Source: Acidobacterium sp. S8 (lineage in GTDB: Bacteria; Acidobacteriota; Terriglobia; Terriglobales; Acidobacteriaceae). Taken from it: a stretch of 31,953 nt of DNA. The stretch covers positions 572,960 through 604,912 of the forward strand of contig NZ_LMUM01000037.1 in assembly GCF_009765985.1 (NCBI RefSeq), read 5' to 3'. The notes under the pieces were generated by a model. The model ran no database searches. It worked only from the letters and a program-made list of their open reading frames with translations, and was not told the origin of the DNA. Positions 8,362 through 22,596 of the stretch are shown here, one piece after another. The position numbers and the translations under genes are program-made. Position 1 is the first letter of the stretch, and each line of letters opens with the position of its first letter.

Positions 8362-8455
8362 GGAAGTGCCTGGGCTCCGGTGATCCCCCCGGTCTTCAAA
8401 ACCGGTGGTCGTCCTTACGGGCGACGGTGTGTTCGACTCACACGCGCTTCCGCCA
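8362..8455 (+). tRNA. selC: tRNA-Sec (anticodon UCA) with encoded CCA
   Basis: Hand fold: 8-bp acceptor stem GGAAGTGC/GCGCTTCC (one T-G wobble); D arm GGGCTC-CGGT-GATCCC with one C-T mismatch; anticodon stem CCGGT/ACCGG with loop CTTCAAA (TCA at 8396-8398); long variable arm GGTCGTCC-TTAC-GGGCGACG; T arm GTGTG-TTCGACT-CACAC; discriminator G then CCA. The layout parallels E. coli selC as I remember it, and the 8-bp acceptor stem is the bacterial tRNA-Sec hallmark. Confidence 0.9.
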
Positions 8456-8602: not shown

Positions 8603-11600
8603 ATGCAAGTTTCTCGCAGAGATTTCATTTGCTCGATGGCTGCAGCAGGTGCGGTCGGGCTCGGAGTGGACGTCCAGCCTCTGATAGCGCAAGCGCGCAC
8701 CCTAAAAACTTCAAAGACAACCCAGACCCGCTCGAACTGCCCGTACTGTTCCGTATGCTGCGGTGTCATTATCCACACAATGACCGATGGGGCAAAGAAT
8801 GTGATCCCTCAGGTTGTGCATGTTGAGGGCGATCCAGATAACCCCATTAACCGTGGCACTCTCTGCCCTAAGGGCGCTTCGCTCCAACAGGATTGCGTGA
8901 ACGAGCGGAGGCTGACCAAGCCTCAGGTGAGACGGCCGGGCAAGTCCGACTGGGAAGACATCTCGTGGAACCAGGCGCTCGATGAGATCACGCGCAAGGT
9001 GAAAACTACACGCGACTCTGGGTTTATGCACCAGGATGAGCAGGGGCGGGTTGTCAACCGATGCGAGAACATCGCGTTTCTTGGCGGCGCCACTGATACG
9101 AATGAATTCTGCTGGACCGTTGTGAAAACAATGGCAGCTTTGGGGGTTGTGCGCCACGAAAACGTGGCGCGTACTTGACACGGCCCTTCGGTTCCCGGTC
9201 TGGGAACCACGTTTGGCCGAGGGGCCATGACTAACAGCTGGAACGACATCGCTAATACCGATGTCATGCTGATCATCGGCGCGAATCCGGCGGAGAACCA
9301 TCCCTGCGGCTTTAAGTGGGCCATTGAAGCAAGGCGGCTGCGCAATGCGCGGATGATCGTCGTTGATCCGCGATTTACACGAACGGCGGCGACGGCAGAC
9401 TTCCACGTGCCGATCCGGGCGGGCAGTGATCTTGCCTTTGTCGGCGGATTGATTCGCTACGCCATCGAGAACAATCTCTATGCACGCGAATATGTGCTCA
9501 ACTACACGAACGCGTCTTTCCTCGTGAACGAGGACTTTCATTGTGCGGACGAGGGTCTCTTTTCCGGATTCGATGCGGCGAAGTCGAACTACGATCAGAC
9601 CACCTGGAACTACCAGCCGAAGTCAGGAGCCGGGACGCCGGGCCACCTGCCGGAAAATGTCGCGGCCGACCCTACCCTGCAGAACACACATTGCGTATTT
9701 CAACTTCTGCGCCAGCAGTATTCACGTTATACGCTGGAGATGGTCGAACGAATCACCGGCGTTCCTCAGGCTAAGTTTGCGCGGGTTGCGGAAGAGTTTG
9801 CAGGGATACGCCGCAACGGCGACATGACCAGAACCGGCACTCTCATCTATTCGCTGGGCTGGACGCACCACTCCATCGGCACGCAGATCATTCGCTCCGG
9901 AGCTATTCTTCAGCTCCTCCTCGGCAACATTGGACGTCCGGGCGGAGGCGTAAATGCGTTGCGGGGACACGCTAATGTACAGGGAGCAACGGACCTCGCC
10001 ATCTCCTGGGACAGCTTGCCAGGTTATCTGAAGCCGCCGACCGCTGGCGACGACAACTTCGCCACCTGGATGAAACGCACGACTCCTACCCCTTCCAAGC
10101 CGAGCGAATGGCAGTCAATGAACTATTGGGCCAACACTCCTCGATTTGCCGTTTCCCTCCAGAAGGCTCTCTATGGTCCTGCCGCGACGGCGGCGAACGA
10201 ATGGGCTTACGATTACATGCCCAAGCGCCCGGATGGGCGCGGCTGGTGGGCGATTTCGGAAGAGACGGTGAAAGGCAAGGTAAAGGGCGCATTCTGCTTT
10301 GGCATGAACGCACTCGCGCTGGCACCATCGGTGGATCGTACCCTCGCCGCCTTGAGTCGGCTCGACTGGCTTGTGGTCTGCGAGATTTTTCCGGATGAAA
10401 CCAGTGAGTTCTGGCGTGCCCCAGGCATCACGGCGGAGCAACAGGCGAAGATCGACACCACTGTATATCGCCTGCCGGGAGCCGGTTTCTCCGAAAAGTC
10501 GGGGACGATGGTCAATTCATCCCGTCTGCTGCAGTGGAGAGACGCTGCGACCCCACCGCTCGGCGATGCGCGAATCGATTTAGAGATTCTGGCGCAGATA
10601 TTCTGGCAGGTGCGCCGGTTGTACAAGACCGAAGACGGCGCTTTCCCGGACCCGATTCTGAATCTTTCGTGGGATTACGAGGACCCGGAGCGGCCGAGCG
10701 CCGAAGAACTAGCTAAAGAATTGAACGGACGGGCGCTTGCACCCGTGACCGAAGGAGGCAGCACGCTCCCGGCAGGATCACAATTGCCGGGTTTCGCCTG
10801 GCTCCGCGACGATGGCTCTACTGCATGCGGATGCTGGATCTACTGTGGCTCGTGGCCGGAAGGGGGTGCCCTGACGAAGCGGCGCGGCACGGAAGATCCG
10901 TCAGGCATGGGAATTCATCCGAACTGGGCCTGGAGCTGGCCGATGAACCGTCGTAATTTGTATAACCGTGCTTCTTGCGATCCGCAGGGGAAGCCTTGGG
11001 ATCCAGGACGAGCCCCGGTGTGGTGGGATGAATCGGCGGGTCGATGGAAGGGTCATGATGTCCCCGACTTCATGGTGACCTCCGCGCCTAAAGAGCACAT
11101 GGGACCCTTTATCATGGCTAACGAGGGAGTCGGCCGTCTCTTCGCGCCGCTGCCGTCACTGGTAGATGGACCATTCCCAGAGCATTATGAACCCATCGAG
11201 AGCCTGGTGGAAAATGCTCTTCACCCGGCTGTACCGACCAATCCCCTTGGCAAGAAAGTAGAGACATCCTTCGACAAATTCGGCACAGCCGCCGAGGGCT
11301 ATACGGCGGTCGCCTTCACCATGCGTCTCACCGAAACCTATCACTTCTGGACCAAGAATAACCCTGCCAACGTTCAGTTGGTGCCGGAACCGTTCGCCGA
11401 GATCAATGAGCAGATGGCACGGGAGCTTGGGATCGACGGCGGCGATTTCATCCGCATCTCCAGTGCACGCGGCGCGCACATTTGCAAGGCAATGGTCACC
11501 AAGAGGCTCCCGGCGCTCCAGGTGAACGGAAAACATGTGTATCAGGTCGGCATTCCTTTTAGTTGGGGATTCCGCGGAATTGCTGAAGACGCCGGACGAA

Positions 11601-11710
11601 CTTCGCGCACTCTCGTCAATCTGATCACGCCAACCAGCTACGACGCCAATACGCGAACCCCTGAGTACAAGACATTTCTCGTAAAGGTCGAAAAGGTTGA
11701 CAAACTATGA
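8603..11710 (+). CDS. fdnG: Formate dehydrogenase (FDH-N/O type) catalytic alpha subunit, Tat-exported, selenocysteine-containing (UGA 9176-9178 recoded)
   Basis: GGAGG lies upstream of the ATG. Twin-arginine signal MQVSRRDFICSMAAAGAVGLGV and an N-terminal FeS motif CPYCSVCCG. ORFs 8603-9178 and 9227-11710 are in the same frame, and the only interruption is TGA 9176-9178. Reading through gives VART-U-HGPSVPGLGTTFGRGAMTNSWNDI, which matches the conserved ARVUHGPTV...TFGRGAMTN active-site block of E. coli FdnG/FdoG. The rest shows molybdopterin oxidoreductase domains. Confidence 0.92.
9179..9220 (+). promoter_or_regulatory. Bacterial SECIS element directly downstream of the fdnG UGA
   Basis: There is a perfect 7-bp hairpin GGTTCCC-GGTCT-GGGAACC at 9190-9208. 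The loop GGTC starts 19 nt after the UGA. A possible lower stem is GGCC (9182-9185) with GGCC (9216-9219). The loop sequence and spacing match the E. coli fdhF SECIS as I recall it (CACGGCCCAUCGGUUGCAGGUCUGCACC). Confidence 0.75.
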
Positions 11711-13258: not shown

Positions 13259-14045
13259 CTGTCTCAATCCTGTATGGCGTTCTGCGCGGGGACAACGAAT
13301 CTGGGCCGACTACCGTGAGCGCGCGGAGAAACTGAATGCTGAGACGGTGAACCCGCTGCTGGCCAGGTACATTGAGCTGGTTTCGCTCCAGGCGAGACTC
13401 AGTTCCATCCTGATCGAGACACTGGATGTTCCCCACACGGATAGCGATTGCGCTCTTCTCAGCTATTTCAATGGAGAAGCACTTCGTCCACTCCTCGCGC
13501 TCGCCGCGCGCGAGGTGAGCGCGAAGGGGAAGATGGAGCCGCCGGAGGAATCGCTGAATCTGCTTGAAGATCTGTGGAATCAGGTAGAGGAGTTCCAGTA
13601 CCCCCGGGATTTTGCGGCGCGGCTTGCCTTGGAAGTCTTTGCCACTGAGATTTCCGTCGTGCCCCACAGGGAGATGGAAACAACACCGGATCGCTGCCCG
13701 CATTGCGGCTTTCCTATCCTCTGTTCGATCGCGCGAGAAGAGGGCCTGGGCACTCGGCGGTCGGCTCTGTGCTCTCTTTGCTCAAGCGAATGGGCGGTTT
13801 CGCGTCTTGGATGTCTGCGCTGCGGAGAGCAGGGAGCGTCCAGGCTCCCGGTTTTCAGCTTCGATGCCTGGGCGCATATCCGAGTCGAGGCATGTGATTC
13901 ATGCGGCGGCTATCTGAAATCCATCGATATGACAGAGGACGCCGAAGCGCTGCCCGTACCTGATGACGTCGCTTCGAGCGCGGTCAATATCTGGGCCTTC
14001 GAGCAAGGTTATCAGGCCATTGGGAGACATTTCTTCAATTTGTAA
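13251..14045 (+). CDS. fdhE: Formate dehydrogenase accessory/maturation protein FdhE
   Basis: Four CxxC pairs in the C-terminal half (CPHCG, CSLCS, CLRCG, CDSCGGYLK) match the FdhE rubredoxin-like arrangement. It lies directly after fdnI, with an 8-nt overlap. Confidence 0.85.
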   Translation: MASCLNPVWRSARGQRIWADYRERAEKLNAETVNPLLARYIELVSLQARLSSILIETLDVPHTDSDCALLSYFNGEALRPLLALAAREVSAKGKMEPPEESLNLLEDLWNQVEEFQYPRDFAARLALEVFATEISVVPHREMETTPDRCPHCGFPILCSIAREEGLGTRRSALCSLCSSEWAVSRLGCLRCGEQGASRLPVFSFDAWAHIRVEACDSCGGYLKSIDMTEDAEALPVPDDVASSAVNIWAFEQGYQAIGRHFFNL

Positions 14046-14188
14046 GTGCCGGCGTAAAGATTTTTATTCTCCCCTTTTGCATAAGTCTTATAGCTTCATC
14101 CCACGCTCGATTCATCGATGTTATTGAGTCAATTTAGAAGCCCAGTCGAGCGGCACATCAGTGCGCTCCGCTAGAATGGCTCTGCGCA

Positions 14189-15130
14189 ATGAGCGAGCTG
14201 ATCAAAGCCGCCAAGATGTTCGCCAATAGCGGTCACCAGCGGATCGCCGTAGAGCGCAATCCAGCACTGCAAAGCCACGAGGCCCATCTAAAGTCCGTAG
14301 CCCAAATCGTTTCATCCGCCAGTGGGGATGAACAAATGATTGCCGCTGCGTGGCTGCACGATATTGTGGAAGACACCGGGGTCACGATTGATGACGTGGA
14401 GCGGCAATTTGGTGTTCAGGTCGCGAAGCTTGTTTACGAAGTCACCGTTGTCAGCGACCCTGCGCGTGGTCATCGCGCCGCCAGCTTTGCACTTTCCAAA
14501 CAGCATTTCGCCAAGGTTTCTGATGCCGCAAAGACGGTAAAACTAGCTGATCTCATCGACACTAGTCGAGACCTCTACAAGAACGACTGGGCAATGTTCC
14601 GCACATACGCGGCAGAAGCGAATGAGCTGGCGCTTGTGCTTAACGGAGGCAATACTAGGCTTCTAACGAGACTGAAACGCGATCTGAATAAGTACGCTTC
14701 CAGCACTCAACCTGCCAGGTCAAGCCCACAGATGCCACAATCGCGGCGTTTTGAAATTCCCATCGCGACCTTGCGAGTGCTGGAGGACTCATTCACCGCG
14801 CAAGATATTACTCAACCTTTGATCACTTTTGATTCAAACCGCACGGCGACCGAGATTCTCGAAGCAATGACCGTAGCTGGCATTGAAGTCGCGGGACTCC
14901 AGCGAGATGGAACCCAATGGGGATTTGTGGAGATTGCCAGCTTGAGTAAGGGTGTTGGTAAAAGCTGGGGACGGGAGTTTGCGGCTAGCCAATTGCTTTA
15001 TACAACAAGCACCTTCACGGATGTCATTGAAGTTCTGACACGACATGATTGGTGCTTTGTGACGGAACTAGGGAATGTTATCGGAGCAATCTCGCGAATT
15101 GATATACAAAAGCCGGTAGGGCGAATGTAG
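14189..15130 (+). CDS. HD-domain (RelA/SpoT-type (p)ppGpp hydrolase-like, HD_4) protein with a C-terminal CBS pair; ends at an in-frame TAG that may be secondary
   Basis: N-terminal HxxxHLxxV...AAAWLHDIVEDTGVTIDDVERQFG...V..LV.EVT is the RSH hydrolase/small alarmone hydrolase signature (HD plus ED). The C-terminal ~120 aa resemble two CBS motifs (FTAQDITQPLITFDSNRTATEILEAMTVAGIEVAGL... and ...FTDVIEVLTRHDWCFVTELGNVIGAISRIDIQK). Confidence 0.7.
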   Translation: MSELIKAAKMFANSGHQRIAVERNPALQSHEAHLKSVAQIVSSASGDEQMIAAAWLHDIVEDTGVTIDDVERQFGVQVAKLVYEVTVVSDPARGHRAASFALSKQHFAKVSDAAKTVKLADLIDTSRDLYKNDWAMFRTYAAEANELALVLNGGNTRLLTRLKRDLNKYASSTQPARSSPQMPQSRRFEIPIATLRVLEDSFTAQDITQPLITFDSNRTATEILEAMTVAGIEVAGLQRDGTQWGFVEIASLSKGVGKSWGREFAASQLLYTTSTFTDVIEVLTRHDWCFVTELGNVIGAISRIDIQKPVGRM

Positions 15131-15214
15131 CTATTCGGAATTCTCACCTTTACGGAGCTTGAGTTTACAGAACGAATTAGACGGAAATGGACTGGCGAGA
15201 GTTGGAGCAGGCTC

Positions 15215-15511
15215 TTGTCGCAGCAAAGAATGGACAAAGCCAGACAGCTCCTCGCCGAACGTGAACGTCGTAAGGAGAAGTGCCATCTGATCGATTGTCT
15301 TCAGTTAGCCGACAAGATAGAGATCCTCATTGCAGATCCGTCAGAATTGGCTGCTATCGGCATTCCCAGTCAGAGTCTGGCGCGGCGAGTCGGCAGGCAG
15401 ATTGAGAGTTTACGTAACAGCCTGGCGCATGCGCAAAGCTTTGTTGAGCAGGATTGGCCGCAAATCGTCCGCTTGACCAGGCGCATTCACAAGATGTCGC
15501 ATGACTTGTAG
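15215..15511 (+). CDS. HEPN-like (Rx4H) domain fragment, in frame with and probably the C-terminus of the upstream HD-CBS protein
   Basis: It is in the same frame as 14189-15130, and TAG 15128-15130 is the only stop between them. 15215 is a TTG; the first ATG is at 15230 and I see no SD. It contains LRNSLAH (R at 15413-15415, H at 15428-15430), which is the HEPN Rx4-6H nuclease motif. The LIDCLQLADKIEIL block resembles Swt1-like HEPN domains found C-terminal to CBS pairs, but this is from recollection and was not searched. Confidence 0.5.
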   Translation: MSQQRMDKARQLLAERERRKEKCHLIDCLQLADKIEILIADPSELAAIGIPSQSLARRVGRQIESLRNSLAHAQSFVEQDWPQIVRLTRRIHKMSHDL

Positions 15512-15813
15512 TTGAACCGAACCTCGGAAGATCGGCTGGTTTTGGATGTCACAGCTTTGGTCCGATTTACCGGGAGTCACGAGCGACCCCCATTACAAAT
15601 CCGGGTTGGGTCCGATTCCGCAATTGTCATTTGTCAATGGGGGGTATATGATATGCTCCATTAGGCCCCATAAGGGTGCCATCTGCGGGATAAGCTGTTG
15701 ATTCAAAACAGCGTTGATTGCAGCATCATATTGCCGCCTTTTCTTGCATTTGATCGGCTGTATGCCGTTCCCCTTGATAACAAAATAGCGATTAGCTTCT
15801 ATATCTCTCTCTA

Positions 15814-16140
15814 TTGGTTACCAATATGGAATCAAAGACAAAGCCTTGGCTAAGGCCCCCCTATCGTAGCCGGGAAAGTGATGGCCTGTCCGGCATGGCA
15901 ACAGCGAAAATCAATCTCAGGCAGAGTGCACATGACCCCGGTCGCAATGAATACGACGTTCAAGTGTTCGGAGATGACTTCCAATCTCAAGTGAAGGGCG
16001 GCTCGTACCAATCGCTTGAGGATGTGTTCGACATTGCATTCAAAGATCGATTGACCAAAGCTGCCAAATTACGAATCCAAAGCTTTCTCGATGCAGGTTT
16101 AGAGGCGCGCTCGAATCTTGCCGAAGACTATAAAGCGTGA
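15814..16140 (+). CDS. Hypothetical small protein (orphan)
   Basis: It is the only sizeable ORF in a ~1 kb gap. 15814 is TTG and the first ATG is at 15826 (MESKTKPW...). I see no obvious SD and recognise no motifs. The composition is plausible for a soluble protein. Confidence 0.35.
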   Translation: MVTNMESKTKPWLRPPYRSRESDGLSGMATAKINLRQSAHDPGRNEYDVQVFGDDFQSQVKGGSYQSLEDVFDIAFKDRLTKAAKLRIQSFLDAGLEARSNLAEDYKA

Positions 16141-16507
16141 TACGAAGCAGTCCCGGCCGATTAGTTAGCGTTGCAATGAGGTGCGGCATGCCGTAACCGT
16201 CAATACGGCTTTCCACGGAACCTTAGTCCCGGCCAGTTCGTTTCCCAGGTCGGTGCTCTACTAGGTGCTGCATTGTGATAAACCACTTATTCCACTCCGG
16301 GTCAGTTGTCTGTACTCAACGAATTTCACGCTTCAAGGTGCCCGCCTGTAGAGTCGGTCCGAACAATTTCGCCCCCGCGCAATTGTTGGGAGGAGCATCG
16401 TCGACGACGAGCACAAGCTCTCTTTAGCCATGTTCGATCATCTTTCAGCTTCCCAACCTACTTCCGTTCGAGGGCGAACTGGATTCTGGATTTGAGATAA
16501 TTCCGAA

Positions 16508-17203
16508 CTACTTGATCGGGTGCGTAGCAAAATATTGCTCCAGGCCGGCGGCCACATCATTCGCGGCCAACTGAACATTCCTGTCTAGAGCCGCGACCAC
16601 ATCCGGAACAGTCTTTGCACTTACCGGCTCATCGTGCGTGTAATACCGTCGCCACACTGTTGCGCCGGTTTGCGTATCACTCAATTCGAGATCCATCGTA
16701 AGTCTCGCTACCAGGTTGCTGCCGGAATCATGTTCCGCAAACTCATATAAGCGTCCGTGTAGAGCGTAATCGCCGCCGGCCTTTCCTTCGGGGGTATAAA
16801 CACCCGAGTAGTGCCCGGAAGCCCTCAATTCCCCGAGGAAAACCCCCTGGATCAGCTCTGAAGGAGGCCCTACCCACCGCTCGTATTCATAGGTCCCCAT
16901 CTGTTGGTTGCCGACACTGTAGACGAGGCGCCTGTCGCGATAAAGGGTCGAAGCCAGCAGCCGTCGAACTACGATCGTCACGGGCACTGGCGGCGTCGTT
17001 GTTGCCGGAGCGATCACGCCAGGGAGACTAAGTTGGTAGTACTTGATCGGACGCGACGCCCCGCCACAGCCGCTGAGAATTCCAAATGCCGCGACAGCCA
17101 GCGCTGCTCCCGACCTTCGGCCGATTCGTCGACGCATGGCTACCATTGTTCCCCTTGGATTACTCTTACGATCTGCCTTGATATCGGCGTTCACGACGAT
17201 CAT
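16508..17203 (-). CDS. ABC-type transport auxiliary lipoprotein (PqiC/DUF330-like) of the Mla/Mce system
   Basis: Lipoprotein signal with lipobox (AALAVAAFGILSGCGG) followed by the YYQL motif typical of this family. It is the last gene of the mla-like operon. ATG 17203 shares an ATGA overlap with the MCE gene stop; the alternative start ATG 17146 (MVAMRRR...) gives a more natural signal peptide. Confidence 0.7.
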   Translation of the reverse strand: MIVVNADIKADRKSNPRGTMVAMRRRIGRRSGAALAVAAFGILSGCGGASRPIKYYQLSLPGVIAPATTTPPVPVTIVVRRLLASTLYRDRRLVYSVGNQQMGTYEYERWVGPPSELIQGVFLGELRASGHYSGVYTPEGKAGGDYALHGRLYEFAEHDSGSNLVARLTMDLELSDTQTGATVWRRYYTHDEPVSAKTVPDVVAALDRNVQLAANDVAAGLEQYFATHPIK

Positions 17204-20733: not shown

Positions 20734-21231
20734 ACCCTGCTTCGCGATAGATCAAGGAATCGTATTGCAGGCGCATCAGGTGTGTTGTCTCTGTGCGTTG
20801 TACTTGAGAACAGCCGGCCCTTCCGTTCTTAAACAGTGCATTTGCGCTAAAGCGCAGTAACCATTCGAAAGGATCCAAGAGCCCTTCGGGGAAGCCACGC
20901 TTCTGGCTGCATGTTACAGACAGGATGGATCTTGGGAAACTGATAAATATGCTAGGTGCGATAAGGAAAAGCGACAGGTCTGGAACGGCAGTCTGGCTTA
21001 TGTTCGGAACAAGATGGCGCGAATCGTTCGGGATACCATTTTTAGTGTCTTTGGCTCCGTCGCTTGCTTTGCCTTCGGATTGAGAAATTCGAATGCTTGG
21101 TCAGTTGGAACAAGGTGAATAACACAATCTGCTCGCTGTACAGCCACGCACTCCAATCTTCCTCACACAGCGTTAGGATGCTAGACTTGAGACCCTTACC
21201 ACAAACGCTCCTGATATAAGGTTTCGACAAG

Positions 21232-22596
21232 ATGCCTATACCGCCTCGGACACACGGAGCACTTCAAATAAAGCTTCGTGAGTCGTTACTCACCCGCACC
21301 GTGGTGCTGCCGATCCAGCGCTTTATTCACATTCAGGGAATCAGCAGCTTCCTGTTGCTCGCAGCGGCAATTGCCGCTCTGGCTTGGGCCAACTCTCCCT
21401 GGCGCGACTCCTATCATCACGTTTGGGAAATGGAACTTACACTTTCAAAGCTTCGCTTGCCTGTACATGATTGGATCAACGATGCTCTGATGGCCATATT
21501 CTTCTTTCTCGTCGGAATGGAGATCAAACATGAAATAAAGCATGGGGCGCTCGCGGATGTGCGCCGGGCTGCCTTACCATTGTTCGCCGCAGTCGGCGGG
21601 ATGCTGGTGCCCGCTCTGTTATTTACGCTTTTGAACAAGGGCAAGGTGGGCGAACACGGCTGGGCCATTCCGATGGCTACGGATATCGCATTCTCGCTCG
21701 GCGTGCTCAGCATGGTAAAAGGCATTTCGCCGAATCTGAAGATATTCTTGCTTTCTCTCGCCATCGCCGACGATATTGGCGCGATCGCCGTAATTGCACT
21801 CTTCTACAGTGGATCGCTGGATAGAAAATCTCTCTTCGTTGCTCTGCTTCTGCTGGCCGTTATCTTTGGCATTCAAAAGATTGGAGTGAAGCAGCCAATC
21901 ATTTATTCGCTGCTCGGCGTAGGAGTATGGGTCGCCATTTTGCGGTCCGGACTTCACGCCACAATTGCAGGCGTGATCCTCGGATTCATGGTTCCTACCA
22001 CGCGGGGTTTGTCCATGTCCGACTTTCAGGAGATCGCGTCCGACATGCTTGACCGATTCAGAACTGCTTTGTCTGACGGAGACGACAAAACAGCAGAACA
22101 TCTGCTTGGCGCCTTCGAGGAATTGATACAGGGAACCGAGTCCGCAGCAGAACGTCTTACCCGTTTGCTGGAGGACTGGGTTGCGTTTCTGGTACTTCCC
22201 TTGTTTGCGTTGTCGAATGCTGGAGTTACGTTCTCCGCGGGAGCATTCGGCGATTTGCTTACAAGCCGTCTTGCCTGGGGAATTATTCTCGGATTGGTTG
22301 TGGGAAAACCGGTCGGCATCGTTGCGTTCTCGTGGCTGGCGATTCGCTGCCGTCTTGCCTTTCTTCCAAGTCACGTTGCATGGCGTCAGTTGTTCGCTGT
22401 TGGTCTCCTGGCCGGCATCGGTTTTACAGTCTCGATCTTTATCAGCTCCCTTGCATTCGATGAAGGATCCCAACTGTTGAATGCCAAGACTGCGGTTCTG
22501 TGTGCCTCACTGGTTGCGGGCTTGCTGGGATATTTCACTCTGCGCGTCAGGGCAAAATCAGACACGATAGAAACAACAGTAGATCGGGGCGCATGA
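21232..22596 (+). CDS. nhaA: Na+/H+ antiporter NhaA
   Basis: NhaA signature blocks: NDALMAIFFFLVGMEIKHE, WAIPMATDIAF, and LAIADDIGAI, which carries the catalytic DD pair. About 12 TM segments. Confidence 0.9.
   Translation: MPIPPRTHGALQIKLRESLLTRTVVLPIQRFIHIQGISSFLLLAAAIAALAWANSPWRDSYHHVWEMELTLSKLRLPVHDWINDALMAIFFFLVGMEIKHEIKHGALADVRRAALPLFAAVGGMLVPALLFTLLNKGKVGEHGWAIPMATDIAFSLGVLSMVKGISPNLKIFLLSLAIADDIGAIAVIALFYSGSLDRKSLFVALLLLAVIFGIQKIGVKQPIIYSLLGVGVWVAILRSGLHATIAGVILGFMVPTTRGLSMSDFQEIASDMLDRFRTALSDGDDKTAEHLLGAFEELIQGTESAAERLTRLLEDWVAFLVLPLFALSNAGVTFSAGAFGDLLTSRLAWGIILGLVVGKPVGIVAFSWLAIRCRLAFLPSHVAWRQLFAVGLLAGIGFTVSIFISSLAFDEGSQLLNAKTAVLCASLVAGLLGYFTLRVRAKSDTIETTVDRGA

Follow-up and report, generated by a model that had tools for sequence, protein, structure and literature searches.

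A premature TAG in an HD-CBS-HEPN gene of Acidobacterium sp. S8, a member of a known but uncharacterised family

Described CBS-HEPN proteins and small alarmone hydrolases

Proteins that join CBS, HD and HEPN domains are listed in an in silico survey of Anantharaman, Makarova, Burroughs, Koonin and Aravind (2013; PMC3710099), who entered the combination as "CBS and HD (alr3009), active" under the Swt1-like HEPN domains. The CBS(+HD)-HEPN examples given there, alr3009 and a protein of Pelobacter propionicus (gi 118580987), belong to the Swt1-like/Abi2 group, and ligand-regulated RNA degradation was predicted for the CBS(-HD)-HEPN fusions. In that work HEPN domains are defined by a core of four helices, of which helices 2 and 3 are separated by an insert, an acidic Ex3[KR] feature in helix 2 and an Rx4-6H motif with a polar residue (N, D or H) after the Arg, located where helix 3 ends and within the loop leading to helix 4 (PMC3710099). 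DS-11, an anti-phage system of Escherichia coli made of one CBS+HEPN protein (WP_000257686.1), was reported with DefensePredictor (Science 2026, PMC13092281); its HEPN domain was assigned to HEPN_SAV2148 by HHpred, and the HEPN mutants R330A and H335A as well as the CBS mutant Y157A each lose phage defence (PMC13092281). Regarding the HD component, the definition of "small" single-domain small alarmone hydrolases (SAHs) and their Mesh1-L and paSpo groups is found in Atkinson et al. (2011; PMC3153485).

The HD-CBS-HEPN architecture is therefore not new, having been catalogued in 2013. An earlier note on the DNA analysed here, made from the sequence alone, named no characterised HD_4-CBS-HEPN system; novelty of the architecture falls with the listing of the fusion in PMC3710099 and the mutagenesis of a CBS-HEPN protein in PMC13092281. 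Among the papers searched, no experimentally characterised HD/SAH-CBS-HEPN protein was found.

The reading frame and its premature TAG

The window, that is, the whole stretch of DNA that was analysed, comprises 31,953 nucleotides of the genome of Acidobacterium sp. S8. On its forward strand, translation from the ATG at 14189 reaches a TAG at 15128-15130 after 313 aa, and the same frame continues beyond this codon for 126 further open codons up to the TAG at 15509-15511. The ORFs 14189-15130 and 15215-15511 start 1026 nt (342 codons) apart and thus have a common frame, and the TAG at 15128-15130 is the sole stop that separates them. The first ORF encodes WLHDIVEDTG (14351-14380) and the second LRNSLAH (15410-15430), and the read-through peptide given in the earlier note is likewise found. 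The truncated ORF (14189..15130), with the HD domain and the CBS pair, corresponds to a database protein of 313 aa that is 100% identical (P0007) and that NCBI lists for Acidobacterium sp. S8 under the name "HD domain-containing protein". The untranslated remainder (15131..15511), a Swt1-like HEPN domain (residues 315-440) plus the natural stop, is devoid of any further stop or frameshift. It shows 99% protein identity to the C-terminus of an intact ortholog, and for this reason the downstream frame is considered open beyond chance. Translation and ortholog alignment both bear out what the earlier note had read from the two ORFs, namely that they lie in one frame with a single TAG between them: one gene, cut by one TAG, spans the ORF 14189-15130 together with the open frame that reaches 15511.

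Homologs of this gene are numerous (712 found), many of them intact, about 440 aa long and up to 94% identical. Confirmed relatives span at least 508 species genomes from Acidobacteriota, Gamma- and Betaproteobacteria, Bacteroidota and Desulfobacterota, and the C-terminal domain gave 683 representative matches. Trp314 is invariant in the 32 full-length orthologs aligned, RMWLFG is present in 80 of the 81 other genomic loci, none of these 81 loci has an internal stop, and the codon at this position is TGG in the orthologous DNA of L001, L003 and L004. A single G>A change at 15129 has converted the invariant Trp314 codon TGG into TAG (15128..15130). The note had placed a Trp at this junction, with a one-base change from TGG, which proved correct, and the uninterrupted orthologs it had called for turned out to be the rule.

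The nearest intact ortholog (94% aa identity) occupies the same genomic place, directly after the fdh operon, and close relatives (87-94% aa) carry the gene at the same position after fdhE. The GC content is 0.49-0.53 over about 14000-16500 compared with 0.55-0.60 in the flanks, and thus the "small AT-richer insert" proposed previously has the lower GC content ascribed to it; it is no strain-specific insertion, given the position of the gene in those relatives. A scan for promoters and terminators over 13900-16600 yielded nothing above shuffled expectation. A search of the window for RNA elements and suppressor tRNAs had as its sole match a tRNA-Sec, which reads UGA and not UAG. Downstream of the TAG the first in-frame TTG is located at 15215 and the first in-frame ATG at 15230; the earlier note was right that no ATG precedes 15230, but its statement that the downstream piece lacks a Shine-Dalgarno sequence is not strictly true, as a GGAG lies at 15204-15207, overlapping the codons for conserved residues (SWSRLL).

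Around the premature TAG, 750 nt of sequence match the closest intact ortholog at 98-100% identity, with 8 differences in this tract, the TAG being one of them. Over the 126 codons (378 nt) past the TAG only 3 substitutions separate the two sequences, 2 synonymous and 1 non-synonymous, and omega downstream of the TAG is 0.10-0.14 (0.10 vs L001). Extra stops, frameshifts and relaxed dN/dS were looked for in the remaining frame and no such decay was found, which indicates that the lesion is very recent or else a base-calling error. A recent inactivation or a sequencing error were also the options named in the earlier note, and this was the right pair. The dN/dS ratio was considered as a discriminator between a real mutation and an error and was set aside as uninformative, with just 3 downstream differences from the nearest ortholog.

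If the TAG were a base error of sequencing or assembly, the organism would have an intact gene of 440 aa. The lesion consists of one substitution in a frame otherwise without defect, the surrounding tract is almost identical to the intact ortholog, and a consensus sequence looks alike for a young real mutation and for an error, all of which would fit such an origin. Against it, the genome is that of an isolate, the contig is 961 kb long, and window ORFs of 827 and 1061 aa are intact, unlike the genes of the indel-ridden metagenome-assembled genome that contains L085. Consensus substitution errors are rare relative to real nonsense mutations in accessory genes. A base error is thus regarded as unlikely, and the TAG is taken as an ordinary nonsense allele in a family that is known but uncharacterised. 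In S8 the expected product is an HD-CBS protein of 313 aa that lacks the predicted RNase domain. The annotated 313-aa protein covers only the first two-thirds of a gene that has been disrupted; its annotation calls either for joining the HEPN remainder (15131-15511) to 14189..15130 as a pseudogene or for a re-check of the base.

Domains of the intact protein

The N-terminal domain (residues 1-170; 14189..14698) resembles Mesh1 and the small alarmone hydrolases. The window protein scored 48.5 bits with Pfam HD_4 (gathering cutoff 27.2), and the family profile matched Mesh1 3nqw (E = 1.4e-24) and human MESH1 (7e-22) among PDB sequences. In Foldseek comparisons the TMt values were 0.81 with 3nqw (rmsd 2.8 Å across 180 columns), 0.80 with human MESH1 and 0.78 with the Pseudomonas aeruginosa SAH 6yvc. 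H33, H57, D58 and D121 are predicted to bind the metal, and E61-D62 forms the ED motif (HDIVED at 14357-14374); in the ortholog alignment H33, H57 and D121 are invariant while D58, E61 and D62 are at least 90% conserved, and these positions align with their counterparts in Mesh1 3nqw. Altogether, the evidence strongly supports an HD domain of the Mesh1/small-alarmone-hydrolase type, and hydrolase activity is predicted from the conserved residues and the model.

A poorly conserved linker modelled at low confidence (residues about 171-190; 14699..14758; AF2 pLDDT 52-57, variable alignment columns) connects the HD domain with the middle region (residues about 191-313; 14759..15127). There the AF2 model displays two beta-alpha-beta-beta-alpha repeats (residues 192-312), the second of which bears G299-x-I-S-R303-x-D, and Foldseek aligned them to the CBS pairs 7msu and 2p9m with TMt values of 0.70-0.71 and rmsd of 2.8-3.2 Å. 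Pfam CBS scored 17.2 bits on the window protein, under the cutoff of 24 bits, and matched 17 of 33 orthologs (best E = 1.4e-6). A CBS pair (Bateman module) is strongly supported as the predicted identity of this region by the model and the structural matches.

With these two domains assigned, the function of the HD domain can be seen in another way: in the same gene with the same lesion, it might trim the 2',3'-cyclic phosphate or 3'-phosphate ends of RNA after HEPN cleavage, with the CBS pair sensing energy charge only. HEPN RNases leave 2',3'-cyclic phosphate ends (PMC3710099), enzymes of the Mesh1 type act on 2'/3'-phosphorylated ribose (MESH1 with NADPH and PAPS: 5vxa, 9chy), the three domains stay together even when permuted, and the genomic context is housekeeping-like, in agreement with such a role. 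This is countered by the retention of the full alarmone-hydrolase signature (R18, H33, HD57-58, ED61-62, D121) and by the nearest HD relatives, which are (p)ppGpp/(p)ppApp hydrolases with mononucleotide substrates. To our knowledge, no HD of the RelA/SpoT type acts on RNA ends. RNA end-trimming is hence judged improbable, and hydrolysis of a mononucleotide is kept as the predicted activity of the HD domain.

The C-terminal domain contains the predicted HEPN catalytic motif R409-N-S-L-A-H414 (15413..15430), an Rx4H motif with the polar N after the Arg. R409, N410, A413 and H414 are invariant in 33 sequences, as are D422, W423 and E357, and RN[NHS]L[AS]H occurs in about 79 of the 81 loci. The AF2 model of this domain (pLDDT 85) has core helices at positions 2-19, 31-46, 81-99 and 106-124, the third of which ends in RNSLAH; small helices (53-76) form an insert between core helices 2 and 3. 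E357x3R361, invariant or nearly so, is located in helix 2 in the manner of the Ex3[KR] feature, and in the predicted model the catalytic motif closes the third core helix and extends into the loop that precedes the last one.

HEPN_Swt1 (PF18731) was the only recurrent Pfam match, with hits in 20 of 21 orthologous domains (best E = 8.8e-6). The window sequence itself scored 13-16.3 bits, under the gathering cutoff of 27.5 bits; four of ten family members reach that score (27.5-29.9 bits) over almost the whole model and the others attain 25-26. As the scoring members match the domain profile at about 1e-50, the window sequence can be assigned to HEPN_Swt1 by transitivity, at the edge of the model. 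The profile scan proposed earlier was thus borne out for HD_4, whereas for the CBS and HEPN_Swt1 models the window protein remained below cutoff, and its HEPN and CBS calls rest on family-level evidence. Read at that level, the HD-CBS-HEPN composition that the earlier note had recognised holds, with an HD_4 match, a CBS-pair fold and a Swt1-like HEPN domain with Rx4H.

Alternatively, the protein could be a CBS-regulated alarmone hydrolase whose C-terminal helices form a bundle for dimerisation or regulation instead of an active HEPN RNase, in which case their loss would alter regulation and would not take away a toxin. The fold searches are consistent with this. Whole-protein Foldseek results were dominated by the HD and CBS domains, and the domain was therefore searched in isolation: no PDB match with E < 3 was obtained (the HEPN toxin 7ae8 ranked 21, E = 9.5), BFVD gave no significant fold match, and the C-terminal profile had no match among PDB sequences. 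Most Pfam scores, moreover, fall under the gathering cutoff. Foldseek is often insensitive on small all-alpha domains, and no Swt1-like HEPN structure appeared among the targets of the fold searches. A mere bundle is at odds with the invariance of R409, N410 and H414 and of D422, W423 and E357, with a motif position and helix topology that follow the HEPN definition, with HEPN_Swt1 as the sole recurrent family, and with the classification of the same fusion as an active Swt1-like HEPN (PMC3710099), and it is accordingly given little credence. Sequence, motif and topology agree in supporting a Swt1-like HEPN domain at the C-terminus, predicted without a fold match to a solved HEPN structure.

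The weakest reading, a programmed or functional split in which read-through or suppression of the TAG would be useful or HD-CBS and HEPN would cooperate as two polypeptides, was raised in the earlier note and could draw on a stop placed precisely at the CBS/HEPN domain boundary and on the GGAG 7 nt before the in-frame TTG at 15215, but it is very improbable in view of the uninterrupted frame in 81/81 other loci and 32/32 aligned orthologs, of restarts at 15215 or 15230 that would leave out HEPN helix 1 (residues 316-333), of a tRNA-Sec as the only tRNA in the window, and of stand-alone HEPN entries of 128 aa that are contig-edge artefacts or frameshifted assemblies. A recurrent split had been considered on account of the many database entries of 127-128 aa that start at M313 and was discarded: the frame of L086 stays open upstream as far as the contig edge and keeps its Trp, and L085 jumps among three frames in an assembly in which an alpha-amylase gene is also fragmented.

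Genomic context and proposed mechanism

Neighbour clustering over about 81 loci was searched for an alarmone synthetase, a defence gene or any conserved partner and none emerged, the largest neighbour cluster being a Kef-like antiporter (9 loci); the neighbouring genes have housekeeping functions. PADLOC returned no match, and blastn and tblastn searches of 72,556 plasmids and 50,697 phages detected no full-length homologs, only stand-alone HD genes. The gene family is chromosomal and its context does not indicate a defence role, a lack that does not exclude such a role because DS-11 itself was chosen outside defence islands.

The locus is one gene of a family of about 440 aa with the domain order HD-CBS-HEPN, cut by a nonsense allele, and based on the domain assignments the intact protein is probably a nucleotide-gated RNase. 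In its dimer, R409, N410 and H414 of the HEPN domains would make up an RNase site that works without metal. The CBS pair may bind a phosphorylated adenine or guanine nucleotide and turn the RNase on or off, and the HD domain may cleave a nucleotide (pyro)phosphorylated at the 3' or 2' position, for instance (p)ppGpp or (p)ppApp, which would set the threshold or reset the switch. The whole would act as a single-chain nucleotide-gated RNase for the response to stress or phage, and in S8 the nonsense allele would drop a potentially toxic effector and keep the hydrolase and the sensor. Gating by an alarmone is a plausible form of this mechanism. A more specific version can be put forward only tentatively: a self-contained alarmone effector in which the CBS pair binds a (p)ppGpp/(p)ppApp-like nucleotide and licenses the HEPN domain, and the HD of the same chain destroys that nucleotide, making the response self-limiting and thresholded. 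If this is true, the S8 allele would be a natural "effector-off" variant that retains the hydrolase.

A large and strongly conserved family joins a hydrolase of the stringent-response type to a predicted RNase via a putative nucleotide sensor. The HD-bearing form is the obvious next target because the CBS-HEPN protein DS-11 acts in phage defence, and its study could reveal the nucleotide to which these sensors respond and show if the effector has alarmone turnover built in. Ready-made constructs exist in P0001 and P0005, two close orthologs that are intact, and in the natural truncation.

Comparison with known systems

The group described in 2013 has the same three domains as the present family, keeps Rx4-6H and was likewise predicted to regulate RNA degradation by nucleotide-sensing CBS domains (PMC3710099). 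It differs in that its N-terminal domain was taken as a generic HD phosphohydrolase, while here it is assigned specifically to the Mesh1/SAH type; alr3009 is likened to the window gene through its published description, and the window copy is truncated by a nonsense codon. The same HEPN subfamily also occurs in shorter proteins of about 260-280 aa that form a CBS-HEPN core class, and one complete ORF (P0401) has the circularly permuted order CBS-HEPN-HD.

DS-11 and the present family share a CBS pair directly before a HEPN domain with RNxxxH, and DS-11 depends on its CBS ligand site as well as on the R/H residues of its HEPN domain, in line with the mechanism put forward above. In the place of the HD, DS-11 carries about 120 unrelated N-terminal aa, and the present family is also set apart by its housekeeping neighbours and its absence from the plasmids and phages searched. 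With hhalign, the profiles of the two families aligned colinearly over 211 columns with superposed motifs, at a marginal E of 0.0032 and a probability of 9.9%; the HEPN domain compared separately gave E = 0.14, which is not significant, and the single-sequence comparison matched the CBS segment only. On these comparisons, direct homology to DS-11 is marginal.

With the SAHs of the Mesh1-L and paSpo groups (PDB 3nqw, 3nr1, 5vxa, 6yvc, 7qoc) the HD domain shares the fold (TMt 0.78-0.81), the complete active-site signature H..HD..ED..D and profile E-values of 1e-24 to 1e-21. SAHs are single-domain proteins of about 180 aa, whereas the present HD is fused to CBS and HEPN domains in a three-domain protein of 440 aa, and falls outside the single-domain definition. 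The N of the KLADxxxN motif is replaced by T in the acidobacterial members and kept in the proteobacterial ones.

The parallels drawn in the earlier note to toxSAS-SAH pairs and to CARF-HEPN effectors are to be read as analogies, no synthetase or other conserved partner being adjacent. In toxSAS-SAH pairs a Mesh1-like hydrolase is able to neutralise an alarmone, as the HD domain could do here; the toxin there is a separate synthetase, whereas here the putative toxin would be an RNase that shares one chain with the hydrolase. The present family showed neither a sequence nor a fold relation to CARF-HEPN proteins, and no CRISPR or cyclase genes lie nearby. The likeness to CARF-HEPN proteins (Csm6/Csx1) with ring nucleases, by analogy only, consists in a sensor-gated HEPN RNase limited by degradation of its signal, with a CBS pair instead of the CARF sensor and a RelA/SpoT-type HD as the degrading domain. 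If the self-contained alarmone effector proposed above is true, the family would be a one-polypeptide analogue of a CARF-HEPN protein plus ring nuclease, operating on stringent-response nucleotides instead of cyclic oligoadenylates.

Reading frame and internal stop codon

In Acidobacterium sp. S8 the gene at 14189-15511 (+) opens with ATG 14189 and is read for 313 codons to TAG 15128-15130, past which the same frame remains open for 126 codons more, to TAG 15509-15511. The arrangement described in the earlier note was confirmed: ORFs 14189-15130 and 15215-15511 are in phase with this TAG as the sole stop between them, both WLHDIVEDTG and LRNSLAH can be read in the sequence, and the earliest in-frame ATG past the stop is at 15230. 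The accompanying claim that the downstream piece has no SD does not hold strictly, as GGAG occurs at 15204-15207, 7 nt 5' of an in-frame TTG (15215). This pair is not read as a functional start, since the GGAG stretch codes for conserved residues and a restart at the TTG would leave out helix 1 of the C-terminal domain. The 313-aa product is recorded as "HD domain-containing protein [Acidobacterium sp. S8]" (P0007), on a 961-kb contig and under the taxonomy Acidobacteriaceae.

A database search with the conceptual read-through protein returned 712 homologs, many of them uninterrupted, ~440 aa long and with identities of up to 94%. In the alignment, the stop position is occupied by Trp in all 32 full-length orthologs (43-94% identity), within an invariant RMWLFG motif, and the codon is TGG in three orthologous DNA loci; from these comparisons the lesion is read as a single G>A at 15129, the one-base change of TGG to TAG that had been anticipated at this junction. 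None of 81 further genomic loci (80 of them with RMWLFG) has an internal stop, so that the option of a programmed split was judged wrong. Three seeming exceptions among the loci were discarded: one is a natural terminus, one a second HD gene and one a shorter N-terminal match. Apparent stand-alone HEPN genes (metagenome calls P0123, P0126, P0129, P0133-P0137 and others) are considered artefacts; they measure exactly 127-128 aa and start at the Met of RMWLFG, and a contig-edge origin was established for at least one of them (L086, a contig-edge fragment with the frame open upstream).

Codon comparisons with the homologous loci L004 and L001 revealed no decay downstream of the stop. Relative to L004, the closest intact ortholog (94% aa identity), S8 carries two synonymous and one non-synonymous change in the 126 downstream codons, and the downstream omega versus L001 is 0.10. 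In a sliding comparison with L004, positions 15022-15771 are 98-100% identical, versus 92-96% upstream and 78-83% beyond 15772; the TAG is one of only eight differences within this tract, and coding differences are distributed unequally downstream and upstream of the stop (Fisher p = 2e-5). The ~750 nt take in the last part of the CBS pair, all of the HEPN region and ~260 nt of 3' non-coding sequence. Their high identity to L004, a metagenomic contig, points to recent recombination or a tract of shared ancestry rather than to constraint on the protein; another possibility is that 15512-15771 holds a conserved non-coding element.

Based on the near-absence of downstream change and the location of the TAG inside this tract, the stop in S8 is either very young or a base-calling error, the consensus sequence alone fitting both, in agreement with the former proposal of a recently inactivated gene or a sequencing error. 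A real mutation is favoured, since the window is otherwise free of signs of error-prone assembly, in contrast to L085, a homologous locus of another genome. The S8 locus is an ordinary nonsense allele, possibly a base error, of a known, uncharacterised family.

The ORF finder also cuts the gene encoding the formate dehydrogenase alpha subunit (8603-11710, +), into the same-frame pieces 8603-9178 and 9227-11710. The dividing stop, TGA 9176-9178 (...NVART[TGA]HGPSV...), stands where FdnG/FdhA-type enzymes usually have their selenocysteine, and a tRNA-Sec gene with anticodon TCA (8362-8455, +; ARAGORN; Rfam RF01852, 71 bits) lies just 5' of the alpha-subunit gene; this TGA is therefore expected to be decoded, in contrast to TAG 15128.

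Domain architecture

The three-domain anatomy previously proposed (HD and CBS followed by HEPN with an Rx4H motif) proved largely right, as evidenced by Pfam, profiles, models and the invariant RNxLAH. Residues 1-170 of the read-through protein were assigned to a Mesh1/SAH-like HD domain by Pfam (HD_4, 48.5 bits vs a cutoff of 27.2 for the window protein), profile search and fold. The family profile matches Drosophila Mesh1 3nqw (E = 1.4e-24) and human MESH1 (7e-22) as well as Rel/SpoT hydrolase domains and bacterial small alarmone hydrolases, and the AlphaFold2 model (pLDDT 87.9, pTM 0.85) aligns with Mesh1 at TMt 0.81 and with the Pseudomonas aeruginosa SAH at 0.78. The metal ligands H33, H57, D58 and D121, the ED pair E61 and D62, and R18 are invariant or almost so in the ortholog alignment, and the domain looks catalytically competent. 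Besides the three-domain gene, a Bacteroidetes MAG (L010) carries, ~5 kb downstream of it, a separate HD_4-like gene fragment (14601-14897) with 39% identity to residues 33-132.

The CBS pair (residues ~192-312) was recognized by Pfam in orthologs and by the fold match of the model; the Pfam CBS family is sub-threshold for the window sequence and matches 17 of 33 orthologs, and the model aligns with solved CBS pairs at TMt ~0.70.

Among Pfam families, HEPN_Swt1 alone recurs for the C-terminal helical domain (residues 316-439), matching 19 of 33 full-length and 20 of 21 domain-only sequences (best E = 8.8e-6); its gathering score is reached by four of ten family members, over almost the whole model, the remaining six falling 1-2 bits short. 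R409, N410 and H414 (RNxLAH) are invariant in the ortholog alignment. In the isolated C-terminal model (pLDDT 85) this motif lies at the end of core helix 3 and extends into the loop that leads to the last helix; helix 2 holds an invariant E357x3R361, and helices 2 and 3 are separated by a helical insert. Motif position, E..R pair and insert agree with HEPN as defined by Anantharaman et al. (2013; PMC3710099). A Foldseek search of the isolated domain against PDB and BFVD gave no significant match and, this fold comparison being the one failed test, the predicted HEPN identity is considered well supported but not proven, the rival reading being a non-catalytic helical bundle. The stop falls exactly between the last CBS-pair element and the first HEPN helix, and S8 is predicted to make a complete HD-CBS protein that lacks the RNase domain.

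Family variants and genomic neighbourhood

At least 508 species genomes contain confirmed relatives and, among the matches listed, the hosts include Acidobacteriota, many sulfur-oxidising Gammaproteobacteria, Accumulibacter and other Betaproteobacteria, Shewanella canadensis, Bacteroidota and Desulfobacterota. With the S8 C-terminal piece as query, an exhaustive phmmer search retrieved 683 representatives (306 at E <= 1e-10) whose lengths form two classes, ~440-460 aa and ~255-290 aa; in the shorter one HEPN comes straight after the CBS pair, and both the junction KPxxRMWLFG and the motif LRNxLAH are shared. The homolog P0401 (L087 1565-2860, a complete 431-aa ORF flanked by alkaline phosphatase and RecQ helicase genes) is a circular permutation, CBS pair-HEPN-Mesh1-like HD. 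Its HD region resembles by eye that of proteobacterial HD-CBS-HEPN members. P0361, an 860-aa protein of the acidobacterial HD-CBS-HEPN type (HEPN part 68% identical), continues into PAS and histidine-kinase ATPase domains and is either a real sensor-kinase fusion or a merged gene call. These architectures show CBS-HEPN to be the core module, with the Mesh1-like HD as an accessory retained despite altered order; that the HD stays joined when the order changes argues for its functional coupling to CBS-HEPN.

Neighbour clustering over ~81 loci revealed no conserved partner gene, the neighbours being ordinary housekeeping genes. The best cluster, and the only neighbour in more than six loci, is a Kef-type K+/H+ antiporter-like membrane protein, encoded directly upstream of the family gene in nine loci, all proteobacterial (e.g., L019), and on the same strand in eight of them. 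No PADLOC model covers the protein. The three-domain protein was never found on plasmids or phages, which carry stand-alone SAH-type HD genes only. Stand-alone Mesh1/SAH-like HD proteins matching only query residues ~1-190 are present in 147 phage and 230 plasmid records, e.g., Pseudomonas phage D6 (H17), Komagataeibacter phage phiKM1 (H20) and a Thioalkalivibrio plasmid (H1); the CBS-HEPN part is in none of these records.

In S8, as in its close relatives, the gene comes after the formate dehydrogenase operon (fdhE), with both on one strand. Similarity between S8 and L001 ends ~70 bp past the gene and GC is 0.49-0.53 in its region vs 0.55-0.60 in the flanks; the gene therefore borders a variable region and may be a horizontal acquisition. 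Thus, the "small AT-richer insert" of the earlier note stands as to base composition and fails as a strain-specific insertion, since close relatives also have the gene after fdhE. The fdhE-to-gene intergenic region measures ~880 bp in L001 and L002 (L001 7051-7929), with a 37-aa ORF called in one copy, and ~140 bp in the window (14097-14117 region) and L004; a 69-nt piece of L001 7051-7929 matches window 21229-21296 on the opposite strand (80% identity).

Proposed function and known systems

CBS pairs bind adenine or guanine nucleotides, and Mesh1/SAH enzymes take the 3'-pyrophosphate or 2'/3'-phosphate off nucleotides. The family is under strong purifying selection, all predicted catalytic residues are conserved and the gene is stand-alone. 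HEPN domains are usually dimeric, metal-independent RNases (PMC3710099). In the simplest model, the intact protein would be a nucleotide-gated RNase, activated or inhibited by a nucleotide that its own HD domain would turn over; in a rival scheme the HD domain would trim RNA ends left by HEPN.

The novelty of this combination had been overstated, as the HD+CBS+HEPN fusion is already known: Anantharaman et al. (2013) have "CBS and HD (alr3009), active" in their Table 1, under the Swt1-like HEPN architectures, and predict in the text RNA degradation regulated by ligand (PMC3710099). A literature search did not retrieve an experimental characterisation of an HD/SAH-CBS-HEPN protein. New here are the specific Mesh1/SAH nature of the HD domain, the family size and selective constraint, the CBS-HEPN core class, the permuted variant, the lack of a partner gene and of mobile-element carriage, and the S8 locus as a unique, very recent nonsense allele, demonstrated by sequence comparison and possibly a base error. 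The value lies in the family as a good experimental target rather than in the S8 stop codon. The best experimental precedent for its CBS-gated RNase logic is DS-11, a one-protein CBS+HEPN anti-phage system of Escherichia coli in which the HEPN mutations R330A and H335A and the CBS mutation Y157A each abolish phage defence (PMC13092281); as its similarity to the family is marginal only, DS-11 backs the logic and not membership.
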